Part shown: piece after piece, positions 15,571 through 40,777 of the stretch | How positions within the stretch are numbered: position 1 is the first letter of the stretch | Layout: each line of letters opens with the position of its first letter | From: a virus | Taxonomy: Duplodnaviria > Caudoviricetes | IMG/VR virus record: IMGVR_UViG_3300032373_000035 | Span: 1-43,052 of that record | Strand: one strand, 5' to 3' | DNA: 43,052 nt | The notes under the pieces: model-generated | The model's input: the letters and a program-made list of their open reading frames with translations, nothing else | Told to the model about the DNA's origin: nothing | Database searches by the model: none | Program-made: the position numbers and the translations under genes

Positions 15571-15826
15571 CTCTGTGCGGTAGGGAGTTCATGACTCCCA
15601 TGTCAAAGCCCGCATCCTTGCCGGTGACCAGCGTGGACGCCTCGCGGTAGTCGAACTTCTGCGTCTTGATGAAGTCCAGGACGAGCTTCATGGTCTCATC
15701 GCTAGGGTCATCCTCGTTCAACCGCAGCTTCAGTTCCTGCACGAAGGCATCGAACAGAGCCAGCATGGATGCCTGCTGCTTGGGGACGGTGGGGTTATCC
15801 CCCATCTCTTTCTTCAGCGCCTGCAT
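15563..15826 (-). CDS. terS: Terminase small subunit (T7 gp18-like)
   Basis: Short helical protein (LFDAFVQELKLRL..VLDFIK..LP) coupled to terL; ATG 15826 (or 15805). Confidence 0.65.
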   Translation of the reverse strand: MQALKKEMGDNPTVPKQQASMLALFDAFVQELKLRLNEDDPSDETMKLVLDFIKTQKFDYREASTLVTGKDAGFDMGVMNSLPHRVE

Positions 15827-15827
15827 C

Positions 15828-16271: not shown

Positions 16272-16274
16272 GTC

Positions 16275-23282: not shown

Positions 23283-23793
23283 TGGTCAGTTCTAGGGTGA
23301 ATGGGAAGAACGGGACTTCCGGGTTGTGGAGGAAGACTGACTCCTCCTCATCCACAGAAAAGCCCAAGTGCTTCAGCCAGTTGATGTGCTTTGTATTGCG
23401 AGAATCAACGTAGTTCATCATAGCATCTGCCTGTAGAGACAAGACAGGGAGCCACTCTTTGCTGATCTGCATGAGTTCCTTGGGGTTCACCGTCAGCTGA
23501 TCTGTTCCAACCATCCAGATCCAGGCAACCCTCTCGCCTTCCACGGGGAGCACGGAGGAGGTTCCGAAGAGACCAATGGGGACACCAGCCCGGAAAGCGG
23601 TGAAGGTCAGGATCCCCCGGTAGAACCCACGGGCAAGAGAGGAGAATGCATCCAGCCCAGTAGCCGCAGTGATCTCTTCCTGATCCGCTCTTCGCAGATT
23701 CTTAGCGATGAACTCTACATCGTGGATGTTGGAGGGACGGATCTCGATTACAGGACGGACCACCCGCGTCGGGTGTTCTGAAGGAGCTGCCAT
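23275..23793 (-). CDS. gp13-like GNAT-fold protein
   Basis: NLRRADQEEI, IWMVGTD, NYVDSRNTKHINWLKHLGF. Confidence 0.8.
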   Translation of the reverse strand: MAAPSEHPTRVVRPVIEIRPSNIHDVEFIAKNLRRADQEEITAATGLDAFSSLARGFYRGILTFTAFRAGVPIGLFGTSSVLPVEGERVAWIWMVGTDQLTVNPKELMQISKEWLPVLSLQADAMMNYVDSRNTKHINWLKHLGFSVDEEESVFLHNPEVPFFPFTLELTNV

Positions 23794-26700
23794 TCGATAG
23801 ACTCAAATCGTAGGTGAAACGGAAGCGAAGTCTTGAGAGTGACCTCGATGTCATGGTTGAGCCCACCGATAGGATAGGTGAGGAACCCATCAGTAGGGAT
23901 AGCAGATCCGAGCACCAATTCGCTGATGTTCGGAAGGATGTACTGCTTGGAGTACAGGGTAGCTCCAGACTGCACTTCTACAGTCAGGGCTCTGGTGTCT
24001 AGGACACCCATCGTCACCCCTTCTACGGTGACCACTTCTTCCGTGCTGGCGAGAGAACCGTCTCTGGTCTCTCTCCGGTTGTACGGACGCGATAGCGTGA
24101 CTAGGCTAGTGAAGGGACTTCCAGCAGTAGCGGTGACGGCGTCGGAGACATCGGCTTGGACCGTGATTTCGTTACCGCTGACTCCGAGTACAGGGGTTTG
24201 CACTCCGTCCAGGACAAGGGCAGCGTCTGCCGGAAGATCGTTTTCAAACGTGAACGTAGTCGTGTCCACACCGTCGTAAACGGCAGAAATTGCCCGCTGC
24301 TTGAAGTCGAGGAATACAGATGATGGCGATACGGGGCTGCTGAACGACTCAAGGTACTTGACTCCATCTCTGTCTACCAGACAGAAGAAAGTGTTCTGGA
24401 TGTATTCAACAGCAAGCAGGCGGTCTCCGAAGGTCCACTTAGACCAACCCCCCAGCTGCCGGTTGAACGGATCCAGGTTGTAAACGAAGGCGTCTCCGCT
24501 GCTCCCCACCCAGACAAGCTTCTGGGCCACCGTCGAAACAGCAGAGTCCAGAAGGTTCTCGTCTAGGTACCTGGGGACGGAGACCGAAATGTTCGCAGTG
24601 GGGAACTCTTCCGACTGCGATCTAGGGAGGATCTGATCCACCCGGGAGTAGTTGCCTGCAGGCCCCACAACGAACATAGAGCCATCAAGCTCCCGGGGTT
24701 CTACGAGGAAGACATCCGCCTCCCGGACGACTCTCTGACCGATGTTCAGAGGTGTGAGGGCTTCCCCGTCCCCCTGGGCGTACACGACATACTGTACGGA
24801 TCTACCACCCATGTAGATGCTGCGGTTGATCTCTTTTGCCCAGACGATGTCTACCGCTCTCTTCCCCTCGATGGTGAAGTCGATACGGTCGTCGTTCGGG
24901 ACAGCTTGCGTGGTGCTGCGCCAGAAGTCGAACAGGTCGGAACTGCGAGAGAGGACACCACCAGTTGCGGTGACCAAGTGCAGGCGTCCCTCGAACACAT
25001 CAATCGCACGGATCTCCCCGCCGATGAACGAGGGATCTCGGTTGGTCGCCACATCTCCCACTTCCCTGTTGCTCCAGTCAACGGTGGACAGGAGGAAGTA
25101 GATGCTTCCGGGGATCCCTGTCTTAGTCCCAAGGACATCGTCCTGCAGGCGCTGCATCTGGTGAGGCATGGTTGCCTCGTCGATGATGTAGGGAATCTCA
25201 GGAGCGACGGTCTCTGACCACTCCCCCTCCCCCGTGGGATCTCCTGAAAAGGTAGTGAACTCAACCCAGGTGTCGTCCACTTCCGTCGAGAGGGACCCAG
25301 AGAGCTTCACCTTGCGCCCGTTACGGAAGACCGTGGGGAGCCCGGTGATCTCCGAGACCGTGTCGAACAGAACGACGACCTGCTGGTCATTCTCTAGGGA
25401 GTCCTCTTGGAACTCGAACGAAGTTTCCTTTACGGTCGTCAAACCGTTGTAGTTCTTGACTGCCTTCCAGGTGTACTTGGCTTCCTGGGAGAGAGCCACC
25501 ATCTCCATCTTCTCCACCTCGTACCCAGCCGCAGCGGTGATGAAGACAAGGTTGTCCTCCAGTTCCACCGTTCCCCAACCAGCTGCGACGATATCCGCAC
25601 CTCCACCGTTTCCGTACCAACCAGAAGTGGCGGACAGGTCTTCCGTCAACTGGTAGTGGAAGGCGGCGGCGACAGAGATCGGGGTGCCGTTGCACTCGAC
25701 ATACGAGTACGGGGTCTCCCATGAGTTTGACCCCGCTCCATCGGATTTCGGCGTAAGCGTTCCAACCTCGTTAGAGGTTCCATCTGCACGGTTCTCGGAG
25801 AACACCGTGTACACCTGTTCGTCCTCCAGGGTGTCCGTGTTCGTGTCCCGGAACTGCAGCTTCATCTTGAAGCCGGTACGCTCCTCGGAGTACCCACGCA
25901 CCCAGAGAGCCCCGAAGGAGTCTTGTGCGGGCGTAAGGTCTGCCTTCATCGCAGGGGTGGCTGCGGTGTTCAGCAGGAACGTAGTGTCGCCCACCGTGGT
26001 GAGCTTCAGGTTCTCCACGAACTTGGGCCGCTGGACGTAGGGGACCCGGATCTGTGCATTGAGCCCATCCTCGTTCAGCAGCATGTTCCCCCACAGGAAG
26101 AAGTCACCGTTGTTAGTGCTTCCGTCCGTGCGGATCTGGAGGACCGTGGGCTCCGTGTCAAACGCCACATCCCCGAACTCCAGGGGACGGCGGGACATCT
26201 GGATCTCGTACCAGCCATCCCCAAGGTCTGTCAGCAGAGCGTCCATGTAGGCCGAGTCGGTCCCTGCTACAGCCACTCCAGTGATCTCCGTACCGCTGGT
26301 TGTGATGTCAACCCCAGCGATCACCGTAGCTCCGTTCAGCAGCTGCATCTGCAGCGCATCCGGATACCTGGCTTCACTCTTGATCCGAGTGCTCCAGAGG
26401 ATGTTCTTGGTCCCGTCGAAAGAGGCAGAGAACGGGGCCAGGTTCAGTTCCCAGTACTTCCCCGCCCCGGAGCCGTTCATGGAGAACTCTCGGGAGTACC
26501 CGAAGTACAGCGGGGAGTCGTTCAGTTCCGACAGCGCAGAGCTTACCCCACCAAACGAGATGAACGGGCTGTTCTCCGAGTACCCCGTAGTTAGGATCTG
26601 CTCAGTCCTGTGATCTAGGTACGCTGCAATCGGGTCAACCAGATCCGGCCCGGTAGAAACGCTAGTGCTCTCCGTGTAGACAGGGATAGCTTCTCCGTCT

Positions 26701-27032
26701 TCCCATCTGTTGACATACAGGTTCGCCTGCCCAGTGTGGGTAGAACTGGAACCAACAGAGGCCCCAACGGGACCCAGGGAGACAAGGTACTTTTCCGTCT
26801 CATCCCGGTCGATGGAGTGCAGCACCATTTGCTCCGATCTCCATGTCGTCGCACTAAGCTGCCCCCGGAGACCCACCGTGGCAAGAAGGTCCGTTCCGGA
26901 TCTCCGGGTCATCCCGTCAACGAGGGAGAACTCTACGTTCTCAAGCTCCTCAAACGTGTTCGAGGGGCGCTCCGCAGGACTCTGCTGGGAAACGCCCCCT
27001 GTGAGGTTGCTCAGTGTTCTGTTGCTAGACAT
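23748..27032 (-). CDS. Tail tubular protein B / nozzle (gp12-like) with internal insertion
   Basis: NLTGGVSQQ, IDRDETEKY, TVGDTTFLLN, ATMPHQM, WSNREVGD..NRDPSFIG, GWSKWTF. Confidence 0.9.
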   Translation of the reverse strand: MSSNRTLSNLTGGVSQQSPAERPSNTFEELENVEFSLVDGMTRRSGTDLLATVGLRGQLSATTWRSEQMVLHSIDRDETEKYLVSLGPVGASVGSSSTHTGQANLYVNRWEDGEAIPVYTESTSVSTGPDLVDPIAAYLDHRTEQILTTGYSENSPFISFGGVSSALSELNDSPLYFGYSREFSMNGSGAGKYWELNLAPFSASFDGTKNILWSTRIKSEARYPDALQMQLLNGATVIAGVDITTSGTEITGVAVAGTDSAYMDALLTDLGDGWYEIQMSRRPLEFGDVAFDTEPTVLQIRTDGSTNNGDFFLWGNMLLNEDGLNAQIRVPYVQRPKFVENLKLTTVGDTTFLLNTAATPAMKADLTPAQDSFGALWVRGYSEERTGFKMKLQFRDTNTDTLEDEQVYTVFSENRADGTSNEVGTLTPKSDGAGSNSWETPYSYVECNGTPISVAAAFHYQLTEDLSATSGWYGNGGGADIVAAGWGTVELEDNLVFITAAAGYEVEKMEMVALSQEAKYTWKAVKNYNGLTTVKETSFEFQEDSLENDQQVVVLFDTVSEITGLPTVFRNGRKVKLSGSLSTEVDDTWVEFTTFSGDPTGEGEWSETVAPEIPYIIDEATMPHQMQRLQDDVLGTKTGIPGSIYFLLSTVDWSNREVGDVATNRDPSFIGGEIRAIDVFEGRLHLVTATGGVLSRSSDLFDFWRSTTQAVPNDDRIDFTIEGKRAVDIVWAKEINRSIYMGGRSVQYVVYAQGDGEALTPLNIGQRVVREADVFLVEPRELDGSMFVVGPAGNYSRVDQILPRSQSEEFPTANISVSVPRYLDENLLDSAVSTVAQKLVWVGSSGDAFVYNLDPFNRQLGGWSKWTFGDRLLAVEYIQNTFFCLVDRDGVKYLESFSSPVSPSSVFLDFKQRAISAVYDGVDTTTFTFENDLPADAALVLDGVQTPVLGVSGNEITVQADVSDAVTATAGSPFTSLVTLSRPYNRRETRDGSLASTEEVVTVEGVTMGVLDTRALTVEVQSGATLYSKQYILPNISELVLGSAIPTDGFLTYPIGGLNHDIEVTLKTSLPFHLRFESIEWQLLQNTRRGWSVL

Positions 27033-27595
27033 TACCGGCGATAGAGCTTGGTGATCTTGTGCATGTAGCGGCTGCGGCCCACGTTGTGCCTGTTGCTCCG
27101 GTAGTCCTGGCTCTTGACCATAGCGCGTGCCTGGTCCCTGGCCTGTGCCACCGTAGCAGAGCTACCAGTGTTCCCCCGGAGGCTCTGGTGAAGCTGCAGG
27201 GCAGCCTCGCGGGCAACGTACTCTTGCCAGGCTGTGGGCGTGTCCTCGAAGTCGATCAGGTAGGTCAGGTACGCGGAGAGCGAGGAGCCCCACTCGTCCG
27301 TATCGTTGACCATGTCGTAGAGGACGCCTCCACGGACAGCCACGATGTACCTGTCGATGGTGGGTTGAACGGACAGGACCGACGACGAGATGAGGATGTT
27401 GTCGTTTACGTCAGGGGAGAGGGTCTTCTCTCCGGTCTGGTTGAACCACCAGCCCTTTTCCTGTTCCGTGCGGTCGATGTCCTCCACAAGAGCCTTCGCT
27501 CGCGCAACGACAGGAGAATCAGGCGTGTCCACTGAAGCAGCTTGCTCCAGATTCACAGAGGTAAGGACTACGTTGACTGCGCTGAGTAGAGTCAT
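27032..27595 (-). CDS. Tail tubular protein A / adaptor (gp11-like)
   Basis: LSAVNVVL, QEKGWWFN, RGGVLYD, FEDTP..EYV; follows capsid gene. Confidence 0.88.
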   Translation of the reverse strand: MTLLSAVNVVLTSVNLEQAASVDTPDSPVVARAKALVEDIDRTEQEKGWWFNQTGEKTLSPDVNDNILISSSVLSVQPTIDRYIVAVRGGVLYDMVNDTDEWGSSLSAYLTYLIDFEDTPTAWQEYVAREAALQLHQSLRGNTGSSATVAQARDQARAMVKSQDYRSNRHNVGRSRYMHKITKLYRR

Positions 27596-27613
27596 GTGGG
27601 TGTGGTGGAGAAG

Positions 27614-27648
27614 GAGAGGCCCCCCGGGGTTTCCCCAGGGAGCCCCTC
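27614..27648 (-). terminator. Long hairpin after capsid gene (T-phi position)
   Basis: Minus strand GAGGGGCTCCCTGGGG-AAA-CCCCGGGGGGCCTCTC with G-U pairs only on this strand; weak pyrimidine tail. Confidence 0.65.
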
Positions 27649-27655
27649 AGGGTTC

Positions 27656-28702
27656 CTACGGGCTCGTCAGGTCGGGTTGCGAGGCAGCCGAGTTGATCTC
27701 GACAGCAGCTTCCGGACGGGTGACGTTGGTACCCTTCATGACTTTCGACACGAGGATATCACCCTGGTACTCGATGCTGTACTCACGCTCGATGCTCATG
27801 CCACGGAGCCATGCCGAAGAGATGGCATCGCGGTGGAACATGGTCGTGAGGTAGCCAGCGCGGGTATCCGAACCGATGTTGGAGGCGGTGAACTCGCCCA
27901 GGTAGTCGTTGCCACCCGTGATGCCAGAGCCGTAGCTCGCGGTCACGAAGTCAGCGGTCGGGACGTTGTTGCTAACCAGGACGGTCGCACCAGCCATTCG
28001 CGTGACGTTACCTTCCGTGATCACAGCGGTTCCGCCGTAGTCTCGGTTGATGATGTCGCGGAATCGCATGATGTACCAGTAGTCGCCGGGGAGCAGCGGC
28101 AGGTACCGCTCACTCTTCGGGACATCCTTGGCGTCCATGATAGCCGCAGCGGCCTCGAACGACTCGTAGAGGCTCTCAGCCGAGCCCGCCGTGAACTGCA
28201 CATAGCCACCGAAACCGAGCGAACCCAGGTCGGTGTTGCAGATCGACGGAGCGGTAGTCGAGTTCGACCGGGCAGCACGGGCAGACATGACGAAAGCAAG
28301 CTGGTCGTACTGGACGGCCATGCCTTCACCAAGCTGCTTCGCGTACTCGGAACGAACCTCGTACTCGTTCATGTCGTCCTCGGACTCGTCCAGGAAGGTC
28401 GAGTTGACCATCTTGCGGTCGATCTGAACGGGGCGCTTCACCGAAGCAATCGCGTTCAGGTAACCGTCGTCGATGATCGACTCGCCCGGAACGTGCCAGG
28501 TCGGGACGGAACGACCAGTCGCCGGGAAGCTCGTGGACTTACCGTGCGGAATGGTCTTGTTTCGGATGAGGGAGTTGACTTGCGTAGAACGGTCATACGC
28601 AGCCATCACCTCACCCGCGAAAAGCTCCAGGTTCAGGGCTCGACTGTCACCAGACGAGTTGACCTGACCCGGGCGTGAGAAAATGTCGCTCGGAAGGGGC
28701 AT
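27656..28702 (-). CDS. Major capsid protein (T7 gp10-like)
   Basis: RALNLELFAGEV, TIPHGKSTSFPATG, YEVRSEYAKQLGE, VSNNVP, RPEAAVEI. Confidence 0.95.
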   Translation of the reverse strand: MPLPSDIFSRPGQVNSSGDSRALNLELFAGEVMAAYDRSTQVNSLIRNKTIPHGKSTSFPATGRSVPTWHVPGESIIDDGYLNAIASVKRPVQIDRKMVNSTFLDESEDDMNEYEVRSEYAKQLGEGMAVQYDQLAFVMSARAARSNSTTAPSICNTDLGSLGFGGYVQFTAGSAESLYESFEAAAAIMDAKDVPKSERYLPLLPGDYWYIMRFRDIINRDYGGTAVITEGNVTRMAGATVLVSNNVPTADFVTASYGSGITGGNDYLGEFTASNIGSDTRAGYLTTMFHRDAISSAWLRGMSIEREYSIEYQGDILVSKVMKGTNVTRPEAAVEINSAASQPDLTSP

Positions 28703-28779
28703 TTTTCAGAAAGGGGTTTGGGTTTCTCGGAAAAGAATGTTTGGCGGGTGATGGTGCGGTATCCGGATCGTGCCGGGCG

Positions 28780-29121
28780 CTACGGAAGTCTTGCGAGTTC
28801 GCCAAGAATGACTCGCTCCCACTCCTCGGGGGTGTACATGGTGGCCGCTCCAGGCGGCAGGGGGTCCAGGAGGTCTCCAGTCCAGTGCTGTCCACTGGCA
28901 ATCTCAAGAGCGAACCAAGTTCCCTCGTTGACATCCAGGGGGAAAGTCACAGTGAAACCCTGGGGGAGATACGTCTGGACATCGAGGCTCGCCGCCCCTA
29001 CTGCAACGACCCACTGGTCGGATGCCTTGATGTGCCCACGGAGTTCCCCGTCGATCTGGGTGAAAGTTCCAGCTTGACAGGAGACCAGCAGGGAGAGCAG
29101 TAGGGAGGCGACGAACTTCAT
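28780..29121 (-). CDS. Putative lipoprotein (113 aa)
   Basis: MKFVASLLLSLLVS-C lipobox; ATG 29121 lies 4 nt after the scaffold stop. Confidence 0.65.
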   Translation of the reverse strand: MKFVASLLLSLLVSCQAGTFTQIDGELRGHIKASDQWVVAVGAASLDVQTYLPQGFTVTFPLDVNEGTWFALEIASGQHWTGDLLDPLPPGAATMYTPEEWERVILGELARLP

Positions 29122-29125
29122 GTGA

Positions 29126-29851
29126 CTAGTTGCGGAAGAAGGAGGATCGGGAGAGCTTCTCTTCGACTTCTCGCCGGTAGGAAGCATCCGTTTCGTACAG
29201 GACAGCGCCGGAAGCGTCTCTCTTCTTCATCGCGGAGATCATCTCCGAGCGAGAAAGAAAGCCGGTCGTCTGGTTACTCAGCGAGGTGTTGGTGATCGGG
29301 GATGCCGGGTCTGTTCCGACAGCGGAGACATAGGCGCTCTTGATGCTTTCCAGCGCAATCTCCCAAGCAGCAACATCACCGCGAGCAAGAGCATCGTTCG
29401 CCACCTGTGCCTTGTCCTGAGCGTTCACCCCGGCCCACTGCGTCATCGCAGCATACGCCTCTTCCCCACCAACGATCTGCTTCCCCTTCGAGAGCGTCTG
29501 ATCAGCCAGGGCCTTGACGGCGTTCAGGTGAGTCTGCACGATCTCCTCGGGGAATCCCATCTGGGTCAGTTGGCCGATACTCTCAGCTGACAACTCACCC
29601 TTCTCCGCATACTCTTGGTAGAAAGCGTTGAGATCCGTTTGCGGAGCATCAGGAGCAGCAGGAGCTTCTCCCCCGCCAGCAGTGGGGGTAGTCCCCGGGG
29701 CCTCAGGTTTCTCTTCTCGCGGTTCTCCAAGCTTGGACTCCAGAGACTTGTACGCCTCCTCCAGCTTCTCCACGCTGTCGAACTTGCCAGCGTAGGTGAC
29801 TGCTTCGGTCTCCCCTTCGATGCCCGTGGGGACTTGCGGTTCGGTTTCCAT
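29126..29851 (-). CDS. Capsid scaffolding protein (gp9-like)
   Basis: AGKFDSVEKLEEAYKSLESKLG, VGGEEAYAAMTQWA, YETDASYRREVEEKLSRS. Confidence 0.9.
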   Translation of the reverse strand: METEPQVPTGIEGETEAVTYAGKFDSVEKLEEAYKSLESKLGEPREEKPEAPGTTPTAGGGEAPAAPDAPQTDLNAFYQEYAEKGELSAESIGQLTQMGFPEEIVQTHLNAVKALADQTLSKGKQIVGGEEAYAAMTQWAGVNAQDKAQVANDALARGDVAAWEIALESIKSAYVSAVGTDPASPITNTSLSNQTTGFLSRSEMISAMKKRDASGAVLYETDASYRREVEEKLSRSSFFRN

Positions 29852-29853
29852 GT

Positions 29854-30279
29854 CTAGTTACTCAGCTGCTCCATGATCGCGGCGGCGTTCGCGGCCCGCT
29901 GTCCTTGGCGCACCTTCTGCAGAGCTGCTCGCTCCGCTGCACCGGCTTCCCAGACAGCTGCGTCGATGTCGTCCCGTTCCTTCGGGGATCGTCCAGTGTT
30001 GATGTAGTGCGTACCACACCAGATGGCCCCGGGGTGCTTTGCTTCAACCTCGGGGTACCTCTTGGACCCGGTAACGCCGACGACCTGAGCCGTGCAGTTC
30101 TGCACCAGCGCAGCCAGCCGCATCTTCGACGGAGACTCCCCACCAGCACGCTCTTGGCGGCTCATGGGAATCGAGTTCGCGGTCTGCGGGGCAGGGGCCT
30201 CGGGGGCCGCTTGGGGCTCCTCAGACGGGCGCGGAGGAAGCGTGACTTCTTTACTGACTTTCTTGTTCTCGCTGGGCAT
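29854..30279 (-). CDS. Hypothetical protein between portal and scaffold
   Basis: 141 aa, overlaps the portal stop and ends 2 nt before the scaffold ATG. Confidence 0.6.
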   Translation of the reverse strand: MPSENKKVSKEVTLPPRPSEEPQAAPEAPAPQTANSIPMSRQERAGGESPSKMRLAALVQNCTAQVVGVTGSKRYPEVEAKHPGAIWCGTHYINTGRSPKERDDIDAAVWEAGAAERAALQKVRQGQRAANAAAIMEQLSN

Positions 30280-31750
30280 TGAGTTCGTCCTGAATCAAGG
30301 GAAGACCTTGCTGGGCAACGGCGGCTTGTTGCTGCGCCTGGAGTCCCTGCTGGTATTCTTCTAGGGTTTTCACGAAACTACCAGTCTCAACTCCAGAGAC
30401 CTTTCCGACCTCTAGCAAGATGTTGTGATAGTTGATCATCAACTCCAGGTGCTGCGGGGGGATAGACCCCTGCGCCATGCTGTTGAAAATCTGGAGAGCT
30501 TCCATTTCAGTGGAGCGCCCAAGACCTTCGATCCCGGTGATGAGTTGTAGTTCTACCACATTCTCGGGTAGAGCCGCCAGAACTCCAGTTTTCTGGAGGA
30601 AGTTCTCGGTGAGGGTCACGACTGGACCCTGGATGTCTTCCGCCATCTGACCGAAAGCTCCACCCAGGGCAACGTCGAGTTCTCTAGCGAGATAGGAGAT
30701 TTCTGTAGCGGTGACCCGCTCCCCCGATCTCTGAATGGTGGATCCCATGAAGAAGGCTTCCCGAAGCTCTTCCCGGGTTTCCCGGAGGAGACCCGCAGCT
30801 GTCTGCAGATCACCGAACTTGTCCAGCTTGGTGGTCCCGATGTCCTCCTCTACCCCGGTGATGCAGGCACCATTGTCTGCCATCTCGAAGTCTTGGATGT
30901 TCGTGACCCCCGCAGGGTTGAACAGGAAGACGACCCTGGCAGCGATGGCGGCGATGTCGAGGAGAGCCTCGGAGAGCCCCTCAGCAGACGCCAGATCCCC
31001 CACGATCTTGTCGATGAAGGAGCGCCCGTAGTCTTCCCCGGAGTGGTGCTCCCACCGCAGAGGGCGGAAGGGGACGAGGTGCTCGGGGTACGTTGCCTCA
31101 GTTCCAGGGACCAGCTTCTCGTCAGCTTCCTGCCAAGAGTCGAACATCTTGGGTCCGGTTCTCCGGAAGCAAGTGTAAATCTCCGTGGTCTCCTTATCAG
31201 GCGTCCGATACTCGGGCTCCAGCATGACACTGGCAACCTCTTCCCTGACGATGCTCTTGAGGATGTTGTCGGCGCTGTCCCGGGAGACAACGTAGTTCCT
31301 GAGAGGGACGAAGCGGAATCGAGCGGACTTCGGGACTTGCCACAGGGCTCCGTTCCCGCCGATGATCAGATTTCGCAGCAGTTCCGCAATACGGGGGCGG
31401 AACCAGGGCTGCTCCAGGGTGCGCCAGACGACCCTCGCTCTGTCCTGAAGCTGCTGGTCTACAGCCGGTTTCAGCCCCTTGCTCTGGGACACCTCGCTCT
31501 CGCCCTCGGCTGTGAGCCTGTGCTGGAACCACTGGACCCCCGTGGGGAACAGAGTGGTGAGCAGCTTGGAGGTGAGGTTCTCTACCCCCCGGGACCCCAC
31601 CGACTGATAGGGGTCGTTGAAGTTGGAGGAGGCGTTGTGCCCGTCTTGCGGGAACACAATGGGCTGGGTGAGCAGAGAGGCACGCTGTGCCCGGTCCATG
31701 AAGTGCTCACGGGCACCCAGCATGTGCGTGTACTCTTTCTTGAGGCTCAT
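30251..31750 (-). CDS. Portal / head-tail connector (gp8-like)
   Basis: PYQSVGSRGVENLTSKL, GEDYGRS, RSGERVTATEI, ITGIEGLGR. Confidence 0.95.
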   Translation of the reverse strand: MSLKKEYTHMLGAREHFMDRAQRASLLTQPIVFPQDGHNASSNFNDPYQSVGSRGVENLTSKLLTTLFPTGVQWFQHRLTAEGESEVSQSKGLKPAVDQQLQDRARVVWRTLEQPWFRPRIAELLRNLIIGGNGALWQVPKSARFRFVPLRNYVVSRDSADNILKSIVREEVASVMLEPEYRTPDKETTEIYTCFRRTGPKMFDSWQEADEKLVPGTEATYPEHLVPFRPLRWEHHSGEDYGRSFIDKIVGDLASAEGLSEALLDIAAIAARVVFLFNPAGVTNIQDFEMADNGACITGVEEDIGTTKLDKFGDLQTAAGLLRETREELREAFFMGSTIQRSGERVTATEISYLARELDVALGGAFGQMAEDIQGPVVTLTENFLQKTGVLAALPENVVELQLITGIEGLGRSTEMEALQIFNSMAQGSIPPQHLELMINYHNILLEVGKVSGVETGSFVKTLEEYQQGLQAQQQAAVAQQGLPLIQDELNAQREQESQ

Positions 31751-31921
31751 CTACCTGGCGAGGGGGATCGTGAGGGAACTAAGGGCAGCCTGCTGCAGCT
31801 GTCCCTCTAGCGTGGTAGGACGGGCACCCGAATTGGCCTGGAATGCCAGGGCACCCTCTTCCGGCGAGGGAAGGGGCGGCGGGGGCGGTGTGGGTTGTTT
31901 CGGAGCGCCGGGGCTACACAT
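31751..31921 (-). CDS. Small Pro-rich virion protein, gp6.7/7.3-like (56 aa, not in ORF track)
   Basis: MCSPGAPKQPTPPPPPLPS...SSLTIPLAR; stop abuts the portal ATG. Confidence 0.7.
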   Translation of the reverse strand: MCSPGAPKQPTPPPPPLPSPEEGALAFQANSGARPTTLEGQLQQAALSSLTIPLAR

Positions 31922-32144
31922 CTTCTCGTTGGGTTTCGTACATGATTCGCAGTTTCCGGATTAGAGACACGACCGCAGCCCGCTGCAGGAAGTCCTCTCT
32001 GGTAGTATCCGGGGAAGGGCACTTGTCAGGGTAGGTCCGTTCGAGCCATTCAAGAAGATTCAAGGAGATTTCCGGTTGATGGTCTCTTGAAGGCTCGGAA
32101 GCTGATACCCGCCCACGAAGTGCTTGTGATCTTGCTTTCCTCAT
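31914..32144 (-). CDS. Small conserved podophage protein at the gp6.5 position
   Basis: PEISLNLLEWLERTYPDKCP..AAVVSLIRKL; ATG 32144 avoids overlap with the + strand gene. Confidence 0.65.
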   Translation of the reverse strand: MRKARSQALRGRVSASEPSRDHQPEISLNLLEWLERTYPDKCPSPDTTREDFLQRAAVVSLIRKLRIMYETQREDV

Positions 32145-32178
32145 TATGCTACCATAAGAGAAACCGACCACGAATCTG

Positions 32179-32316
32179 ATGAAAAAACTGAACAAAGTTC
32201 TCTCGGTCCTGCCGAGTGTCCTCAAGCTGGTCCCTACAGATTGGCCCTCTCTGCTCCGCTTTTCGGTCTTCCTGGCTGTGATTCTCGGGGCTTCCTACTT
32301 CCTGAAGTTCCTCTAG
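32179..32316 (+). CDS. Small membrane protein, possible holin (45 aa, not in ORF track)
   Basis: MKKLNKVLSVLPSVLKLVPTDWPSLLRFSVFLAVILGASYFLKFL; ends 3 nt before the fibre ATG. Confidence 0.6.
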   Translation: MKKLNKVLSVLPSVLKLVPTDWPSLLRFSVFLAVILGASYFLKFL

Positions 32317-34988: not shown

Positions 34989-35028
34989 GGGGGTTTCCTG
35001 GGGTAAATCCTGGGGAACCCCCCTTTTT
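34989..35028 (+). terminator. Intrinsic terminator after tail fibre
   Basis: GGGGGTTTCC...GGGAACCCCC stem followed by TTTTT. Confidence 0.7.
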
Positions 35029-35100
35029 ATTGGGGGTGAGCTGGCGATCCCACACTCTATGTCCATTGTGGGGCAAATAGGGCCGACTTGTGGTGTTCTT

Positions 35101-35417
35101 GGGGGGTTCTGTGGGGGTTCTGTGGGGATTCTGTGGTGCCACTTCTGGGACCCCGGGGAAAAATACTGCAGAAACCTGTTCACCCTAACGAAACCCTGCC
35201 GGGTGGCTGTTCCCCCCCGGTGCCCTGCGCGTTTCCCCGGGGAAAGCCCTGGGGAATTCCCTACTGTCTTCCCTGCTTCCTGACACTGTGTATCCCTGGG
35301 GAATTCCCTGGGGAAAGCCCTGGGGAAATCCCTACTGTCTTCTTCGGGGAGTACCCTGGGGATCCTACCTACTAGTAGGGAGCCTGACGCCGTGTTTCCC
35401 TGGGGAATTCCCTGGGG
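35101..35417. repeat. Short-repeat array, probable genome-terminus region
   Basis: 11-bp GGGG(G/A)TTCTGT x3; 12-bp CCCTGGGGAANN tandem units; 37-bp repeat 35235-35271/35306-35342; GGGAATTCCC palindromes. Confidence 0.7.
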
Positions 35418-35665
35418 ATTAGGGCTTTGTTAGGTGTCGGTGAGGCACCATAAGGGAACGTCTCCGAGAAAGCCGAGGGGGGGACCCTGGGGACTTCTTT
35501 GGGACACCTAAGTCCCTGCTACCAAAGGACTTACGACGATTGCAGGCAGGTTCTTTGGGGTACCGCGTTCGGTTCCTCGAAACGATCCGCTCAGTCATCC
35601 GCAGGGAGAGCTGCCGGGGGGATCCCCGGGACAGCCGACCCTGCAACCCACAACCAGAGACAGAC

Positions 35666-36052
35666 ATGACAGACAGCATTCAAGCGGACCCGCTCCAGCG
35701 TTCCTACGATCGCGACGGCCTCCAAGACATGTTCCACCGGGAACTGGCTCCTTGGGCCTTCGATCCGAAGGACTGGCCCACGGGGCCGCCGACACTCTCC
35801 CAAGCCATCGCGGCTCGGATGCTCCCTCCAGCAGACCTTCCGGGTCCCCGTTGGTCCCAGGGGCTTCTCGACCGATGGCGGGACGGTGACGAAGAGGAGG
35901 AAGCTCTCCTCAAGCTCGCGAACCGCATCCGGCAAGCGAGGGAAGACCGCTACGAACGCTGGCGGGGAATGGTCGAGAGAGTCTACTCCTGGGCTCCTGA
36001 GATTGGACCCTGCCCCAGCCGAGCTTCGATGCTCGCAATCTGCCGGGACTAA
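35666..36052 (+). CDS. First early gene, hypothetical (128 aa)
   Basis: ATG within the GAGACAGACATG leader motif. Confidence 0.7.
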   Translation: MTDSIQADPLQRSYDRDGLQDMFHRELAPWAFDPKDWPTGPPTLSQAIAARMLPPADLPGPRWSQGLLDRWRDGDEEEEALLKLANRIRQAREDRYERWRGMVERVYSWAPEIGPCPSRASMLAICRD

Positions 36053-36074
36053 CCCGGGGGGGCTTCGGCCCCTA

Positions 36075-36142
36075 CCCTAGACAGACCCTCCGCCTTGACG
36101 CGGCTCTAGGGCTCCCCACAATCGGTGGGGTCCAAGGGAGGG
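36075..36142 (+). ncRNA. HDV-like ribozyme candidate 1
   Basis: P1 CCCTAGA/TCTAGGG, P2 CCCTCC/GGGAGGG, P3 GCC/GGC, L3 TTGACGC, P4 CCCCAC/GTGGGG, J4/2 TCCAA. Confidence 0.8.
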
Positions 36143-36161
36143 ACTACAACCAGAGACAGAC

Positions 36162-36530
36162 ATGATGAGAAGCGCGCATACCGCACAACGGTCGAAGCGT
36201 AGGCTTATGCCAGCGTGGATCGCCGCTACCGCCGAGCAGCATCTCGTAGACGCAGCTAAGATGGGCATGCCCTACAGCTGTGCTTGCGGGGAGGCTTGGA
36301 CGGATGGTGAGGATCCGAAGACGGGGGAAACCCTGTCTGGACTCTCGAACGCGATCCAATGCGGATTCTGCAAGAACCAGCTTTCGCCCGAAGTGTACAA
36401 GCATCGCGCCGTGACGTTCACGGACGCGGACACTGGAATGGCCTACATCGTGTGGCAGCGGGGATGGAAAGCCGTCCAATGCGTTCGCCCGGATGTGGAC
36501 GAGTGGAAGAAAGCGAATCAAGAAAAGTGA
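36162..36530 (+). CDS. Early hypothetical protein with Cys pairs
   Basis: GAGACAGACATG leader; CAC and CGFC. Confidence 0.7.
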   Translation: MMRSAHTAQRSKRRLMPAWIAATAEQHLVDAAKMGMPYSCACGEAWTDGEDPKTGETLSGLSNAIQCGFCKNQLSPEVYKHRAVTFTDADTGMAYIVWQRGWKAVQCVRPDVDEWKKANQEK

Positions 36531-36582
36531 CAACCCATCGTTCGGTTCCCCGAAACGTCCCGCTTAGTAGGGGGACCGAGCA

Positions 36583-36644
36583 CCACTAGAACAGACTGGC
36601 CTTGACGCGGCCTAGTGGCTCCCGGCAACGGGTCTAACAGTCTG
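36583..36644 (+). ncRNA. HDV-like ribozyme candidate 2
   Basis: P1 CCACTAG/CTAGTGG, P2 CAGACTG/CAGTCTG, P3 GCC/GGC, L3 TTGACGC, P4 CCCG-GCAA-CGGG, J4/2 TCTAA. Confidence 0.85.
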
Positions 36645-36666
36645 ATAACTCCAACAAAGGACAGTG

Positions 36667-36888
36667 ATGGATAACAACGTGAACGAAGTGTGCGATGCCA
36701 TTCTTGAGCGCATCCACAAGGCGGGACGGCTCTCGGATGAACTTCGAGAAGAGGGCGGTAACGAACGCTCCGTCGAAGGCTTGGAGCGCATGGTCACCTA
36801 TCTGTGCGCTGTCGTCGTCGCCCTCCGGGTCGATGTGGACAACAAGCAAAGCGTGCTTGAGTACCTCGCGGATCTTCCGCGCCTCTAG
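36667..36888 (+). CDS. Early hypothetical protein
   Basis: AAAGGACAGTGATG leader. Confidence 0.7.
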   Translation: MDNNVNEVCDAILERIHKAGRLSDELREEGGNERSVEGLERMVTYLCAVVVALRVDVDNKQSVLEYLADLPRL

Positions 36889-36918
36889 ACCGAGACAGAC
36901 ATCCAACAAAGGACAGTG

Positions 36919-37236
36919 ATGGACAAGACAAGACAGCAGGATCTTCGCGCCCTGTGGCAAAGGTACTTCGACGGAGAACTCTTCCCGGAGACCTGCGAGG
37001 ACTGGATCGAGAGCCGTATCGGTGAACGGTCCTGGGCTTCGCTCGCCAACAACGGAGACACTTGCGCCGTCCCTGCGCTTCTCGGTGCGCCGCACGATAG
37101 CGTGCCGTTCAACACCGTGGAAGACCGGCTCGGTATGGCCTTCTGGTCTGCCGTGTCGGCGCAGAACAGGGGTGGAGCTAGGTACATCTTCGAGGCTCTG
37201 GGAGCGCTTGCACAAGAGCGGGGGGTGGCTCGATGA
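36919..37236 (+). CDS. Early hypothetical protein
   Basis: Same 22-bp leader as the previous gene. Confidence 0.7.
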   Translation: MDKTRQQDLRALWQRYFDGELFPETCEDWIESRIGERSWASLANNGDTCAVPALLGAPHDSVPFNTVEDRLGMAFWSAVSAQNRGGARYIFEALGALAQERGVAR

Positions 37237-37439
37237 AGCTCCACCCTAGCGTGACCCAAGAGCGGATCATGGAGCGAGCCATAGCAGGTATGTACGGGTT
37301 GGATAACCCTGGTATCTGTAGGGCTTGCGGCGAAGACCAGGAAGGCTGCGAGCCTGACGCAGAGCACTACACTTGCGAGTGCTGCGATGCGAACGAAGTG
37401 TTCGGTGCCGAACAACTCCTCATCATGTACGGCGGATGA
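37233..37439 (+). CDS. Small zinc-ribbon protein
   Basis: GICRACG..EPDAEHYTCECCDANEVFGAE; ATGA overlap. Confidence 0.75.
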   Translation: MKLHPSVTQERIMERAIAGMYGLDNPGICRACGEDQEGCEPDAEHYTCECCDANEVFGAEQLLIMYGG

Positions 37440-37504
37440 CGAAACAAACCATCTGTGAGATCGCCTTCATCGGTCTCCTCATCCTCTCAACCTTCCTCAT
37501 CTAA
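37436..37504 (+). CDS. 22-aa hydrophobic peptide (not in ORF track)
   Basis: MTKQTICEIAFIGLLILSTFLI; ATGA coupling, stop directly before the hairpin of ribozyme 3. Confidence 0.55.
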   Translation: MTKQTICEIAFIGLLILSTFLI

Positions 37505-37522
37505 CAGGGGCCTTCGGGCCTA

Positions 37523-37583
37523 CCCCTGGAATGACTCGGCCTTGACGCGGCCCAGGGGCTCCCATTGTGGGTCTAACGGAGTC
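37523..37583 (+). ncRNA. HDV-like ribozyme candidate 3
   Basis: P1 CCCCTGG/CCAGGGG, P2 GACTCG/CGGAGTC, P3 GCC/GGC, L3 TTGACGC, P4 CCCA-TTG-TGGG, J4/2 TCTAA. Confidence 0.8.
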
Positions 37584-37609
37584 GGACAGACATCCAGCAA
37601 AGGACAGAC

Positions 37610-37930
37610 ATGGACATCCAGAAAGCGGAACCTCGCACCGAGCCTTCCATCCGGACTCGGACTCGGACTCGGACTGTTGAGGTTGAGGAGGAAGTCGAGG
37701 TGACATCCGGGTTCGACCTGGAAGTTTCCCTCAGCCTCCAGGAAGCGGAGCACTTGCGGGCTCTCCTCAAGTGTTCAGACCTCCTGGACCCGTTGTTCTA
37801 CCGGGTTGAGCGTCTCCTTCATATCGCAACTGAAGCGGACCACACTCCCTTCAGTCGTGGGCAGATGGAGCGGGGTGGCACCCGCATCCCGGTCAACGGA
37901 CTCGAATTCAACGGCGGGAAGAAGTTCTAG
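37610..37930 (+). CDS. Early hypothetical protein (LxxxEAxxLxALL family)
   Basis: AAAGGACAGACATG leader; (CGGACT)4 microsatellite at 37652-37675. Confidence 0.7.
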   Translation: MDIQKAEPRTEPSIRTRTRTRTVEVEEEVEVTSGFDLEVSLSLQEAEHLRALLKCSDLLDPLFYRVERLLHIATEADHTPFSRGQMERGGTRIPVNGLEFNGGKKF

Positions 37931-37934
37931 AATC

Positions 37935-38189
37935 ATGAAAAGCAAATGCAAAGTCGAGGCTGTGAAGCTCGAACCCGTGTTCAAGGTGAGCATTGAGCTT
38001 ACCCTCGAAGACGCCCGGAACCTGCAAGCCCTGTGCTGGACGATTCCTGCGGATCGTCTGGGCGGTTCTGAGGTGCTGTGCGACCTGTACTACAAACTGT
38101 CTAGTGCAGTGAACGACTACCCTGGTGTCGCTAAGAACGTCGAAGTCAACGGCGAGGAAATCTCCTGCAACACCCTGACTTTCCGATAG
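37935..38189 (+). CDS. Early hypothetical protein (LxxxEAxxLxALL family)
   Basis: ELTLEDARNLQALCWTI..LYYKL..VNG..CNTLTFR, similar to 40778. Confidence 0.7.
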   Translation: MKSKCKVEAVKLEPVFKVSIELTLEDARNLQALCWTIPADRLGGSEVLCDLYYKLSSAVNDYPGVAKNVEVNGEEISCNTLTFR

Positions 38190-38198
38190 AGGACAGAC

Positions 38199-38657
38199 AT
38201 GAAGAACAAGAACCTGCGAAGAGACATCATCGCCAAACAACGGCGTATCACGATCCGGGACCTCCGGAAAACCCTCAGGCAAGCCAGGAAGGGACTACCC
38301 GAGGGTAGCTCTCACCTGAGCCCCGAGGACAAGGCGCTGTGGATAGCAGCTCTCCGGTCTGGTCAGTTCAGACAGGGGAAGTTTTGCCTCCAGCCCGCCA
38401 AGGATACCTACTGTTGCCTTGGTGTGCTGAACTGCCTAGTGCCTGAGGAAAAACAGGCAGACCCGGGGAACTCGTACCTGAGCTTCCTCCCGAAAGAAAT
38501 CCAGCGTCCCCTCGCTGGGGCTAATGACCTGATGCATGGGGCGGATGCCACAAATGGGTGGCTGCTGTACATCAACAAAGATCCTATCGGAGAGGCCACC
38601 CCTCAGATCGCACCCACCTTTCACCAACTCGCAAGAGTCATCGAGGAGGAGTTGTAA
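38199..38657 (+). CDS. WxxALRSG...CCLGVL family protein
   Basis: LWIAALRSGQFRQG..YCCLGVL..AND..TFHQLARVIE. Confidence 0.8.
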   Translation: MKNKNLRRDIIAKQRRITIRDLRKTLRQARKGLPEGSSHLSPEDKALWIAALRSGQFRQGKFCLQPAKDTYCCLGVLNCLVPEEKQADPGNSYLSFLPKEIQRPLAGANDLMHGADATNGWLLYINKDPIGEATPQIAPTFHQLARVIEEEL

Positions 38658-38660
38658 GGC

Positions 38661-39083
38661 ATGAAGCTCGAACAGATCAAGAAGATCCGTGACGATTGGG
38701 TCGCGGCTCTCCGGAGCGGTGAGTACACACAAGGCAGAAAGACCTTGTACCGAGGGCCGGTTGACTCGGAGCACGAAGTTCCAGCAACTTACTGCTGCCT
38801 GGGTGTGCTCGCTGCCCAGAGTGGGGTGAGCGAGACGGAACTAGCGGACCTCCACTACCTGGACGACCTGAATATCCCCGGAGTAGCGGCGCTGGAGACA
38901 GCAGCGGATGCGCTGGGCCAGCTGATCCCACTAGATGCTCTGAAGCCAGACGGGACCATCATGACCGTGAACTGGGACCACAAGCTCTTCGCTGAGTTGA
39001 ACGACTCCCAGGGTAAGACGTTCGCTGATATCGCGGACATCCTGGAGAAGATGGACCTGTCCACGACTCCCCCGGAGAACTAG
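38661..39083 (+). CDS. WxxALRSG...CCLGVL family protein
   Basis: DWVAALRSGEYTQG..YCCLGVL..LND..TFADIADILE. Confidence 0.8.
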   Translation: MKLEQIKKIRDDWVAALRSGEYTQGRKTLYRGPVDSEHEVPATYCCLGVLAAQSGVSETELADLHYLDDLNIPGVAALETAADALGQLIPLDALKPDGTIMTVNWDHKLFAELNDSQGKTFADIADILEKMDLSTTPPEN

Positions 39084-39710
39084 ATGGGAGACTTCAGCAA
39101 GCCGAGCAAAATGCCCTGGCTGGCCTGGAGCACCCCAGCTAAGGACTGCAAGAACGGTAGCAAGCTCCACGATGTGCCTGGGAGCGTCTGTGAAGGGTGC
39201 TACGCACTCCGGGGCTTCTACAACATGGGAACCACCCGGCGAGCTATGGCGCGCAGACAGGCAGCCTGGAAGGAACCTGGGTGGACGGGTCGGATGATTG
39301 ACGACCTGTACGAAGAGTCCCAGAAGGTAGCGCCGAGCCTACGGTTCTTCCGATGGTTCGACTCAGGAGACATCCAGAGTGTCGCCCAGCTGCACAAGAT
39401 CGTGCTGATTGCGGAGGCACTGCCGGGGATCGGGTTCTACCTTCCGACCAAAGAGTACGGGATCGTGAGACAGTACTTGAAGCGGAATGAGGTCTATGGA
39501 TTCCCCAGGAACCTAGTGGTGCGTCCAAGCGCACCTATGGTAGATGAGGACATGGTACCCATCCCCGGACTCACCCGCTCCAAGGTCGAGAGCGACCCGG
39601 ACATGAACTCTCCGGATACCTGCCCGGCTAAGTTGCAGGCTAACAAGTGCTGGGATTGCAGGATGTGCTGGGATCCCGAGCAAGAACTCATCATCTACCC
39701 TCACCATTGA
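39084..39710 (+). CDS. GP88-like Cys-rich protein
   Basis: SKPSKMP..PAKDC..GSVCEGCYA, FRWFDSGD, LPTKE, CPA..CWDCRMCWD. Confidence 0.7.
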   Translation: MGDFSKPSKMPWLAWSTPAKDCKNGSKLHDVPGSVCEGCYALRGFYNMGTTRRAMARRQAAWKEPGWTGRMIDDLYEESQKVAPSLRFFRWFDSGDIQSVAQLHKIVLIAEALPGIGFYLPTKEYGIVRQYLKRNEVYGFPRNLVVRPSAPMVDEDMVPIPGLTRSKVESDPDMNSPDTCPAKLQANKCWDCRMCWDPEQELIIYPHH

Positions 39711-39775
39711 TCGTATTCGTCCTAGCAGGGCTCTTCGTCCTGTTCATCATCGTCAACCTGGACTACGAGTGGTAG
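39707..39775 (+). CDS. 22-aa hydrophobic peptide (TTG start, not in ORF track)
   Basis: MIVFVLAGLFVLFIIVNLDYEW; TTGA overlap with the previous stop. Confidence 0.45.
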   Translation: MIVFVLAGLFVLFIIVNLDYEW

Positions 39776-39797
39776 TCCCAAGCAAGAGACAGACAAA

Positions 39798-40766
39798 ATG
39801 CACGAAATTACTGAGACAGACAACGCGATGTACGTTGGGAAACCGGCATGGCACGGACTCGGAACCGTGGTGCCGGAAGCCAACGCTCGGACCTTCGTTC
39901 GGGATGCTGGTATCGGGGATGAGATCCTCGAACGGCCTCTCTACGATGGGGACATGAACCAGCTTGAAGGCTGGAAGGCCATCGTCCACTCCGGGAACGG
40001 TAACGTCCTGAACGTGGCGCGGAACACCTACAAGGTGATCCAACCTGCGTTCCTCCAGGAAGTCTGCAATGTCCTGGCGGATGACGGGGCGACCCCAGAG
40101 GCTGGGTTCAGTATGAACGGCGGGAAGGAACTCGCTGTCCTGCTCAACCTGAACGCCCCCCTGGTTCTTCCTTCGGGTGAGGATCATGTGGTGCCGTATG
40201 CCATCATGCATACCAGCCACGATGGGACGGCAGCCTTGACCCTCTCCGGTACTACCATCCGGGTGCAGTGTAAGAACATGCTGCGGATGGCCTTCGGATG
40301 CCGGAAGGCTGAGGGAGTCTATCGGATCACCCACAAGGGTAACGTGGAGTCCGAGCAGGAGACCCTGCTGGCTTCCCTGTCCGGTATCCGCCGACAGCTG
40401 GAGGAATTCGAGGCCCGTGCCTCCCTGCTCTGTGAGGTCAAGGTCTCCGAGCAGGACCGAAGGGATCTGATCGAGGGTGCCTACAGGTACATCAACGATC
40501 TGGAGGAACTCCCGCAAGGGGGAGACAGCAAGGGTGAGAAGTCCAGGCTGACCCGGTGGAAGAACTTCCAAGCGGAGTCCACGCTGGTCTACCACGGACC
40601 CACCTGTGACAACATCCGGGGTACTGCCTGGGGTGTCATGAACAGCATGACGGAGGTGTTGGAGAAGTCCAACTCGAAGGACCGTAGCGCCTCCCGAGTC
40701 AACGGCACCATCTCCCGGAAGCGGGAGGATGTGGCTACCTACATCACCGAGACCATCCTGAGCTAG
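39798..40766 (+). CDS. DUF932/DUF945-family phage-plasmid protein
   Basis: MHEI..PAWHGLG, YKVIQ, EAGFSMNGGK, TSHDGT, IRVQCKNML, ITHKG, GTAWGVMNSMTE. Confidence 0.85.
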   Translation: MHEITETDNAMYVGKPAWHGLGTVVPEANARTFVRDAGIGDEILERPLYDGDMNQLEGWKAIVHSGNGNVLNVARNTYKVIQPAFLQEVCNVLADDGATPEAGFSMNGGKELAVLLNLNAPLVLPSGEDHVVPYAIMHTSHDGTAALTLSGTTIRVQCKNMLRMAFGCRKAEGVYRITHKGNVESEQETLLASLSGIRRQLEEFEARASLLCEVKVSEQDRRDLIEGAYRYINDLEELPQGGDSKGEKSRLTRWKNFQAESTLVYHGPTCDNIRGTAWGVMNSMTEVLEKSNSKDRSASRVNGTISRKREDVATYITETILS

Positions 40767-40777
40767 AGGAGACAGAC

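Follow-up and report, generated by a model that had tools for sequence, protein, structure and literature searches.

Hairpin-plus-A flanks of HDV-like ribozymes with C at +1 in a putative phage early operon

The window analyzed here is the whole 43,052-nucleotide (nt) DNA of the virus record IMGVR_UViG_3300032373_000035, which is complete and carries direct terminal repeats at its ends. It contains three elements with the fold of hepatitis delta virus (HDV) ribozymes. Each lies one A behind a hairpin, as a preliminary description of this DNA had stated, and all three hairpins were confirmed at the positions given there (Table 1). Because the same layout is common to about half of the relatives in other phages, we consider it likely, with a probability of roughly 0.6, that these C1-G37/G22-C38 RNAs, each with its hairpin and A, cut an early polycistronic message into pieces with protected ends. 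The basis of this reading is the fold itself, the covariation of helices P1 and P2, the invariant catalytic C, the geometry of the flank in unrelated phages, the absence of transfer RNAs (tRNAs) and the distance to the start codon.

A descriptor scan placed an HDV-like fold directly 3' of each single A, with P1 starting at 36075, 36583 and 37523. The double-pseudoknot order P1-P2-P3-L3-P3-P1-P4-J4/2-P2, with a P1 of 7 base pairs (bp) and a P3 of 3 bp, was found in all three copies. P1 is entirely Watson-Crick paired in each (7/7), which amounts to 21 of 21 pairs over three different P1 sequences. The copies share the P3 strands GCC/GGC, the L3 loop UUGACGC, a P4 of 4-6 bp and a J4/2 of the form C(C/U)AA, and the core GCCTTGACGCGGC occurs exactly three times in the genome. 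The first J4/2 base, at the catalytic position, is C in every copy, and L3 always holds U20 and G25. The nucleotide at +1 is C and pairs with G37 in all three, and P1.1 consists of the single pair G22-C38, with U21 opposite U39. Passages of PMC6326823 and PMC11331408 give the classical HDV descriptor as G1-Y37 with a CC/GG P1.1; none of the window copies has the purine at +1 or the CC/GG P1.1. A P1.1 of one pair plus U-U is known from CPEB3, according to passages of PMC4836649 and bioRxiv 2022.09.22.508989. A search of the window with Rfam gave no match at the gathering threshold and three chance matches at E≤10, and BLAST against cultured phages gave a full relative neither for copy 1 nor for locus L266.

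Relatives were collected by pattern scans that excluded the upstream flank, which yielded at least 494 loci, three of them from this genome. Running the descriptor on these loci and the window gave at least 107 unique cores, of which at least 102 were kept by a score cut-off and a J1/4 of CU or AU; five cores, one of them canonical, were set aside. Merging of similar flanks left 84 representatives, including the three window copies and two U22-A38 forms. Family counts in this work refer to these 84 non-redundant representatives among the matches listed. With its at least 102 unique cores, the subfamily is a large phage group found in varied uncultured phages and metagenome contigs. Many relatives are minimal in form while the window copies have a P4 helix, and L3 varies among relatives (TTGCCG, TTGTCG, TTTACG, TTTTCG). 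The first broad pattern had matched mostly by chance, with 5 of 119 loci folding.

The C1-G37 pair is present in 84 of 84 representatives. Because most search patterns fixed G37, the coupling was checked by separate scans. When G22-C38 was sought without G37, 10 of 45 loci folded and yielded five unique folds, each with G1 and next to a tRNA; G37 combined with the canonical CC/GG P1.1 gave no fold in 12 loci; and a U22-A38 scan gave 10 unique folds in 120 loci, five with C1 and five with G1, none of these 10 having a helix that ends at -2. Between these sets the P1.1 position covaries as C-G, G-C and U-A, each pattern having fixed its own pair. To look for catalytic positions other than C, a further scan was run; 57 of its 72 core matches had a 7/7 P1, and the J4/2 C was kept in all 24 unique folds, six of which were assigned CAGA or CAAA on inspection by eye, given where P2 lies. 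U20 and G25 belonged to the search patterns.

The HDV families of Rfam (RF00094, RF02682 and others) gave no match in 20 relatives at E≤1, and since six canonical controls reached only sub-threshold RF02682 matches, the sensitivity of Rfam is low here. In the searchable supplements on theta ribozymes the subfamily core had no match against 9,767 for the canonical core, a comparison that holds for the searchable files only, in which pipe-split columns cannot match. A literature search, which left most subscription papers uncovered, found no description of the hairpin-plus-A flank or of the G22-C38 subfamily. The alignments of Weinberg 2015 and the supplements of bioRxiv 10.64898/2026.02.27.708514 may already contain G22-C38 members.

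The loci also yielded observations on other RNAs. Some with HDV-like cores also have hatchet, hammerhead, twister, RAGATH-5 or GOLLD RNAs, and at L304 (2484/2837) and L281 C1-type ribozymes lie close to GOLLD RNAs and within tRNA clusters. Three loci (L058 2772, L410 1558 and L422 977) have in common a structured stretch containing GTAAGTCCT immediately 3' of the ribozyme.

The upstream flanks were examined with a helix test in which position -1 was held unpaired, a helix had to reach -5 kcal/mol or lower, and dinucleotide shuffles served as control. A helix ended exactly at -2 in 41 of the 84 representatives compared with 12.6 in the shuffled flanks, where the maximum in 200,000 simulations was 29; other helices ended at -3 (7), at -4 (7) or further out (11). 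Mean pairing was 0.57 at -2 and 0.14 at -1, and the helix excess decayed with distance, from 55 versus 20.8 at -2 to 19 versus 17.8 at -9. The base at -1 was A in 60 representatives; 19 had U there, four had C and one had G. A at -1 accompanied the exact hairpin (34/41 versus 26/43, p 0.03). One 42-kb phage has at least seven C1-type copies (L135 1197/2445/3985; L285 2484/2951/3664/4921), with different hairpins but every one a hairpin plus A in the same register. Two of these seven copies precede MoxR AAA and vWA genes.

The subfamily is not found next to tRNAs: none of 81 members is tRNA-adjacent, as against 27 of 59 canonical phage folds, and ARAGORN found zero tRNAs in the whole window. 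The earlier suggestion that the hairpin is analogous to the tRNA ahead of theta ribozymes is backed by this absence together with the excess of exact helices. A Shine-Dalgarno (SD) sequence with an ATG was found within 120 nt downstream in 34 of 84 representatives and in none of 84 on the opposite strand, and the ATG lies 25-41 nt beyond J4/2 in 30 of the 47 members that have an ATG open reading frame (ORF); the next ATG after copy 3 is at 37610. On the other side, the hairpin begins 0-14 nt past a stop codon in 21 of 43 members, a count without an ordinary-terminator control. From the proximity of the stop, the hairpin-plus-A geometry, the ribozyme and the spacing of the downstream SD and ATG, the unit is therefore a cassette of stop, hairpin, A, ribozyme, short leader and start. 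The hairpin plus A is a real and recurrent feature of it because of the excess of helices at -2, the preference for A at -1 (60/84), the lack of adjacent tRNAs and the clustered start codons.

The sharp spacing, with 41 members having one unpaired base and seven each having two or three, could also arise if the hairpin were a structural part of the ribozyme, bridging the single A by stacking on P1 and so placing the scissile phosphate, end protection being incidental. Of the 41 exact hairpins, 35 close with a purine-first pair (GU 14, GC 11, AU 10), which fits such stacking, and the tRNA acceptor stem with its discriminator might act likewise in theta ribozymes. We nevertheless regard a structural role as unlikely, as a published C1 ribozyme is fast with a 7-nt leader (bioRxiv 10.64898/2026.02.27.708514) and about half of the members lack a hairpin in this position. 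Selection for the shortest 3' overhang would give the exact spacing as well.

A 3' hairpin with a one-base overhang resists 3'-5' exonucleases, and a pseudoknotted 5'-OH end stabilizes a message. In message cutting by the window copies, cleavage would occur between A(-1) and C(+1), a position given by homology that includes a published fast C1 ribozyme. The upstream piece would then end in the hairpin with one overhanging base and would resist such exonucleases, and the downstream piece would begin with the pseudoknotted ribozyme and its 5'-OH ahead of the ribosome-binding site, so that the next message would be stabilized. The hairpin would also insulate P1 from upstream sequence in the manner of P(-1), probably with a mild effect, and together with the A it would occupy the place that the tRNA holds before theta ribozymes. 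On sequence evidence a protective or insulating hairpin is likely.

Several points weigh against message cutting with protected ends. The exact geometry is lacking in 43 of the 84 representatives, 18 of which have no helix at -5 kcal/mol or lower, while in 25 the helix ends 2-15 nt away. Canonical phage folds without a tRNA (24, after eight more were dropped for T-loop-like flanks) also have upstream helices, 13 of 24 versus 4.4 in shuffled flanks, so the upstream hairpin is not special to the C1 subtype; in these folds the helix position is less sharp and -1 is mostly U (17/24). Intergenic hairpins are common in phages, and because the copy 1 hairpin matches intergenic stretches of Arthrobacter phages, some hairpins are perhaps leftover terminator-type stems. 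The copy 2 stem, in turn, is perhaps partly a DNA motif. Since the folds were chosen on P1/P2 pairing, pair counts within the set are partly circular. HDV ribozymes are stated to need a 5' purine in a passage of PMC11331408 that cites Cerrone-Szakal 2008, and the activity of the G22-C38 form is extrapolated from other P1.1 forms.

If the hairpins were ordinary intergenic terminator-type or pause stems beside which ribozymes settled, and had no role in cleavage, this would account for the GC stems with UUCG loops directly past stop codons, for the U-run behind the hairpin in some relatives (L273, L454, L460) and for similar hairpins in phages without a match to the ribozyme part. The window hairpins, however, lack a U-tract and drew no terminator call, the enrichment exists only beside the cleavage site and is nearly gone at -9, and in one phage the register is constant over seven different hairpins. 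We hold this explanation to be quite improbable.

With respect to the C at +1, a C. briggsae ribozyme whose cleavage site is U-1/C1 and whose P1.1 consists of U:A plus C:U cleaves at 9.3/min, and an Ackermannviridae phage ribozyme with a P1.1 of U:A plus U:U at 4.2/min; crystal structures of both are reported, and both ribozymes are credited to Weinberg et al. (bioRxiv 10.64898/2026.02.27.708514). The -1/+1 letters are swapped in two places of the preprint text, and its methods give dU (deoxyuridine) at -1. Because the preprint reports a fast U-1/C1 ribozyme, the C1 window copies are by analogy likely to be active, and the novelty of C at +1 is lower. This bears on the view that the elements do not cleave, being either a non-catalytic pseudoknot or a DNA element with TTGACG as a -35 box. 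Such a view could draw on the conflict of C+1 with the textbook purine rule, as worded in that passage of PMC11331408, and on one sigma-70-like match that overlaps L3 of copy 1. Against it stand the covariation of P1 and P2, a catalytic C conserved in 24 of 24 folds, the variation in L3 and the activity of a C1 ribozyme (bioRxiv 10.64898/2026.02.27.708514), which make non-cleaving elements very improbable. L3 as a -35 promoter box was rejected, the sigma-70-like matches being at chance level (1 found, 0.9 expected).

The preliminary description had further proposed that folds competing with P1 (anti-P1) exist in copies 1 and 3 and that a terminating ribosome could switch the folding and couple cleavage to translation. 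In copy 3 CAGGGG (37505-37510) directly follows the TAA at 37502-37504, and in copy 1 a run of seven G (36056-36062) begins 3 nt past the TAA at 36050-36052. Anti-P1 pairing can be drawn in both, but in equilibrium, pseudoknot-free models it is predicted to be populated in copy 3 alone. There the alternative fold (CAGGG/CCCUG, with the UUCG core retained) was modeled at -11.5 kcal/mol versus -9.0 for the hairpin locally. P1 is predicted to be trapped at about 0.67 until its 3' strand is made, after which native P1 prevails (0.97), and blocking bases up to stop+12 would lower the trap from 0.67 to 0.22. The G-run of copy 1 would add just 3 bp to the same hairpin, giving a trap of 0.09 (0.02-0.10); the anti-P1 pairing is there predicted to be outcompeted by a second hairpin at 36043-36057 with the stop in its loop, and the trap goes up to 0.21-0.35 in the ribosome model. 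The modeled trap of copy 2 is 0.00.

Across the family the proposed switch found no support. Trapping of P1 was the same with native as with swapped flanks (0.324 versus 0.319, p 0.98), as was the energy of the flank-P1 duplex (-4.82 versus -4.67, p 0.67), and native flanks trapped less than shuffled ones (0.324 versus 0.396, p 0.005). The trap correlated at most weakly with stop distance (rho -0.24, p 0.069, n=56), and a stop lay within 35 nt in 7 of the 13 members with a trap and in 18 of the 43 without one. A conserved alternative, mutually exclusive with the native fold and overlapping the ribosome footprint as in an attenuator, was not found in the family, and copy 3 alone fits this pattern. 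A translation-coupled switch, in which the G-run traps P1 until the terminating ribosome covers it and cleavage follows upstream translation, could point to the copy 3 energies, to the modeled release on blocking, to the uncontrolled count of hairpins just past stops and to the modeled ribosome block, under which the trap drops by more than 0.3 in 12 of 56 members and rises in three. The lack of enrichment over swapped flanks, the behavior of copies 1 and 2, the recovery of native P1 in copy 3 and the mere 22 codons of the putative ORF upstream of copy 3 stand against it, and we judge such a switch improbable. For copy 3 alone it is physically possible in the models, where the anti-P1 pairing would at most delay folding. 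Anti-P1 pairing most likely arises incidentally, from G-rich hairpin arms that adjoin C-rich P1 strands. The flank is real and conserved. A ribosome switch is unlikely, with copy 3 as a possible exception.

The loop of the copy 2 hairpin holds the motif GAAACGTCCCGCTTAG, and the 5' arm plus loop of this hairpin repeats at 35566-35595, at the head of the operon. The minus-strand occurrence at 5670 is antisense, inside the first codons of an XRE-type helix-turn-helix gene (5651-5926; HTH_31, E 6e-13). In a related strain, represented by one low-depth contig, the copy corresponding to 35579 is more like the copy at 5670. The thrice-repeated motif may be a promoter or operator. Were transcription to start near 36570, the ribozyme would remove a leader of 13 nt, and only RNA reading through from upstream could form the hairpin; we regard this as a candidate arrangement.

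The C. briggsae and Ackermannviridae ribozymes (bioRxiv 10.64898/2026.02.27.708514) have the double pseudoknot and catalytic C seen here. The former has C+1 like the window copies, and the latter likewise combines one Watson-Crick pair with U:U in P1.1; their P1.1 pair is U:A instead of G22-C38, and the main text of the preprint describes them without upstream hairpin, genomic context or function. Theta ribozymes are phage HDV-like ribozymes that cut right behind a helix, as is predicted for the window copies, and rows of Kienbeck et al. 2024 (PMC10879173) give them a purine at +1, a CC/GG P1.1, no P4 and a position mostly behind a tRNA. The window copies differ by C1-G37, G22-C38, a P4 helix, a simple hairpin for the tRNA and a protein-coding gene behind; their predicted cleavage sites are not at a tRNA 3' end, and their core had no match among the published theta sequences that were searchable. 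In theta-type flanks, too, A is the most frequent base at -1, with 22 of 27 tRNA-adjacent canonical controls. Theta-like G1 folds with a G22-C38 P1.1 occur next to tRNAs at L495, L497, L510, L521 and L529, and the searchable supplements on theta ribozymes contained no match to their core; U22-A38 folds with P4 lie behind what by eye are tRNA-like ends at L764, L778, L846 and L856, one of them with C+1.

Segmentation of phage transcripts has been proposed before for another ribozyme class. According to passages of Perreault et al. 2011 (PMC3088659), tandem hammerheads flank single genes or small blocks in prophages and were proposed to process long phage transcripts; native polycistronic constructs of about 2 kb were cleaved in vitro, and no circular or spliced products were detected. 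The segmentation idea is alike, and those passages contain no terminal hairpin-plus-A geometry. What appears to be new here, within the literature covered, is the hairpin-plus-A flank and the G22-C38 subfamily on a known ribozyme class; phage transcript segmentation by ribozyme arrays was proposed earlier (hammerheads, 2011).

The recurrent hairpin plus A with its fixed leader offers direct comparative evidence for mRNA segmentation with protected ends. The P(-1) and Alt-P1 flanks of the genomic HDV and CPEB3 ribozymes, which sequester P1 or P1.1, reportedly help or hinder folding (work of Chadalavada, 2000 and 2010); the helix described here differs in its fixed one-base distance from the cleavage site, in unrelated sequences and many phages. 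In T7, RNase III cuts the early polycistronic RNA between genes and the upstream piece keeps a 3' stem. That processing needs a host enzyme, whereas the cut proposed here would be protein-free and would leave a 5'-OH and a 2',3'-cyclic phosphate. It is conceivable, if in our view improbable, that stop, hairpin, A, C1 ribozyme, leader and SD form a portable protein-free cassette that replaces RNase III independently of the host, with the hairpin plus A standing in for the tRNA acceptor stem and discriminator and with anti-P1 traps like that of copy 3 released by terminating ribosomes, which would make cutting dependent on translation upstream. The cassettes resemble synthetic ribozyme insulators and could serve as natural parts. 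Neither classical G1/CC-GG descriptors nor Rfam detect the subfamily, and existing counts of phage ribozymes are therefore likely to be underestimates.

Table 1. Coordinates of the ribozymes, their flanks and nearby features in the window.
Feature	Position	Strand	Description
Hairpin of copy 1	36058..36073	+	GGGGGC-TTCG-GCCCCT, 6 bp, UUCG loop, about -11 kcal/mol
A(-1) of copy 1	36074	+	Predicted 3' end after cleavage, position by HDV homology
Ribozyme copy 1	36075..36142	+	P1 36075-81/36105-11 (C1-G37), P2 36086-91/36136-42, P3 36092-94/36102-04, L3 36095-101, G22(36097)-C38(36112), P4 36114-130, catalytic C 36132
Hairpin of copy 2	36540..36581	+	12-bp stem 36540-36551/36570-36581, two G-U pairs, 18-nt loop, about -21 kcal/mol
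A(-1) of copy 2	36582	+	Descriptor scan
Ribozyme copy 2	36583..36644	+	P1 36583-89/36612-18, P2 36592-98/36638-44, L3 36602-08, P4 36621-32, catalytic C 36634
Anti-P1 segment of copy 3	37505..37509	+	CAGGG, pairs with 37524-37528; predicted transient co-transcriptional trap
Hairpin of copy 3	37508..37521	+	GGGCC-TTCG-GGCCT, 5 bp, UUCG loop, about -8 to -9 kcal/mol
A(-1) of copy 3	37522	+	Descriptor scan
Ribozyme copy 3	37523..37583	+	P1 37523-29/37552-58, P2 37533-38/37577-83, L3 37542-48, P4 37561-71, catalytic C 37573
Motif GAAACGTCCCGCTTAG	36552..36567 (copy 2 hairpin loop); 35579-35594; 5670-5655	+; +; -	16 nt, three occurrences
First putative early ORF	35666..36052	+	128 amino acids; no PHROG/Pfam match; TAA within loop of 5-bp hairpin 36043-36057
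ORF between ribozyme copies 1 and 2	36162..36530	+	About 122 amino acids, Cys-rich, no family match
Three small ORFs between ribozyme copies 2 and 3	36667-36888, 36919-37236, 37233-37439	+	No family matches
22-codon hydrophobic ORF	37436..37504	+	Putative; overlaps previous stop (ATGA); TAA 37502-37504, then CAGGGG

Because the record encodes a single-subunit RNA polymerase, a DNA polymerase, a T7-type head-tail adaptor and a major head protein, judged by sequence the phage is a T7-like podophage. A run of small plus-strand ORFs starts at 35666 and contains all three ribozymes; by analogy with the T7-like layout it is a putative early operon. The ORFs tested beside the ribozymes gave no PHROG or Pfam match, and among ribozyme-neighboring genes Pfam matches were found in 6 of 69 proteins, with no pathway defined by the neighbors. 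The 22-codon ORF could encode a small membrane peptide. In DNA reads of three runs, copies 1 and 2 were covered only in a possible source sample, with no variant letters, and a related strain was recovered for 35544-35925 only.

Several features surround the early operon. At the start of the record, the RNA polymerase match (126-1520) extends over the C-terminal part only. The structural genes (13819-32225) are on the strand opposite the replication genes, an arrangement in which T7 itself differs. Between a tail-fiber-like gene and the early operon, short direct and inverted repeats of the CCCTGGGGAA type cluster at 34989-35420, and a strong terminator-like stem at 34989-35022 lies upstream of the operon. 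A long hairpin with internal loops (35601-35644) precedes the first early ORF and is possibly an RNase III-type site; the genes that follow have ribozymes instead. Seven early genes (35658-40770) have the unusual leader (A/G)GACAG-N1-3-ATG behind A/C-rich stretches, a possible host-specific ribosome-binding signal.

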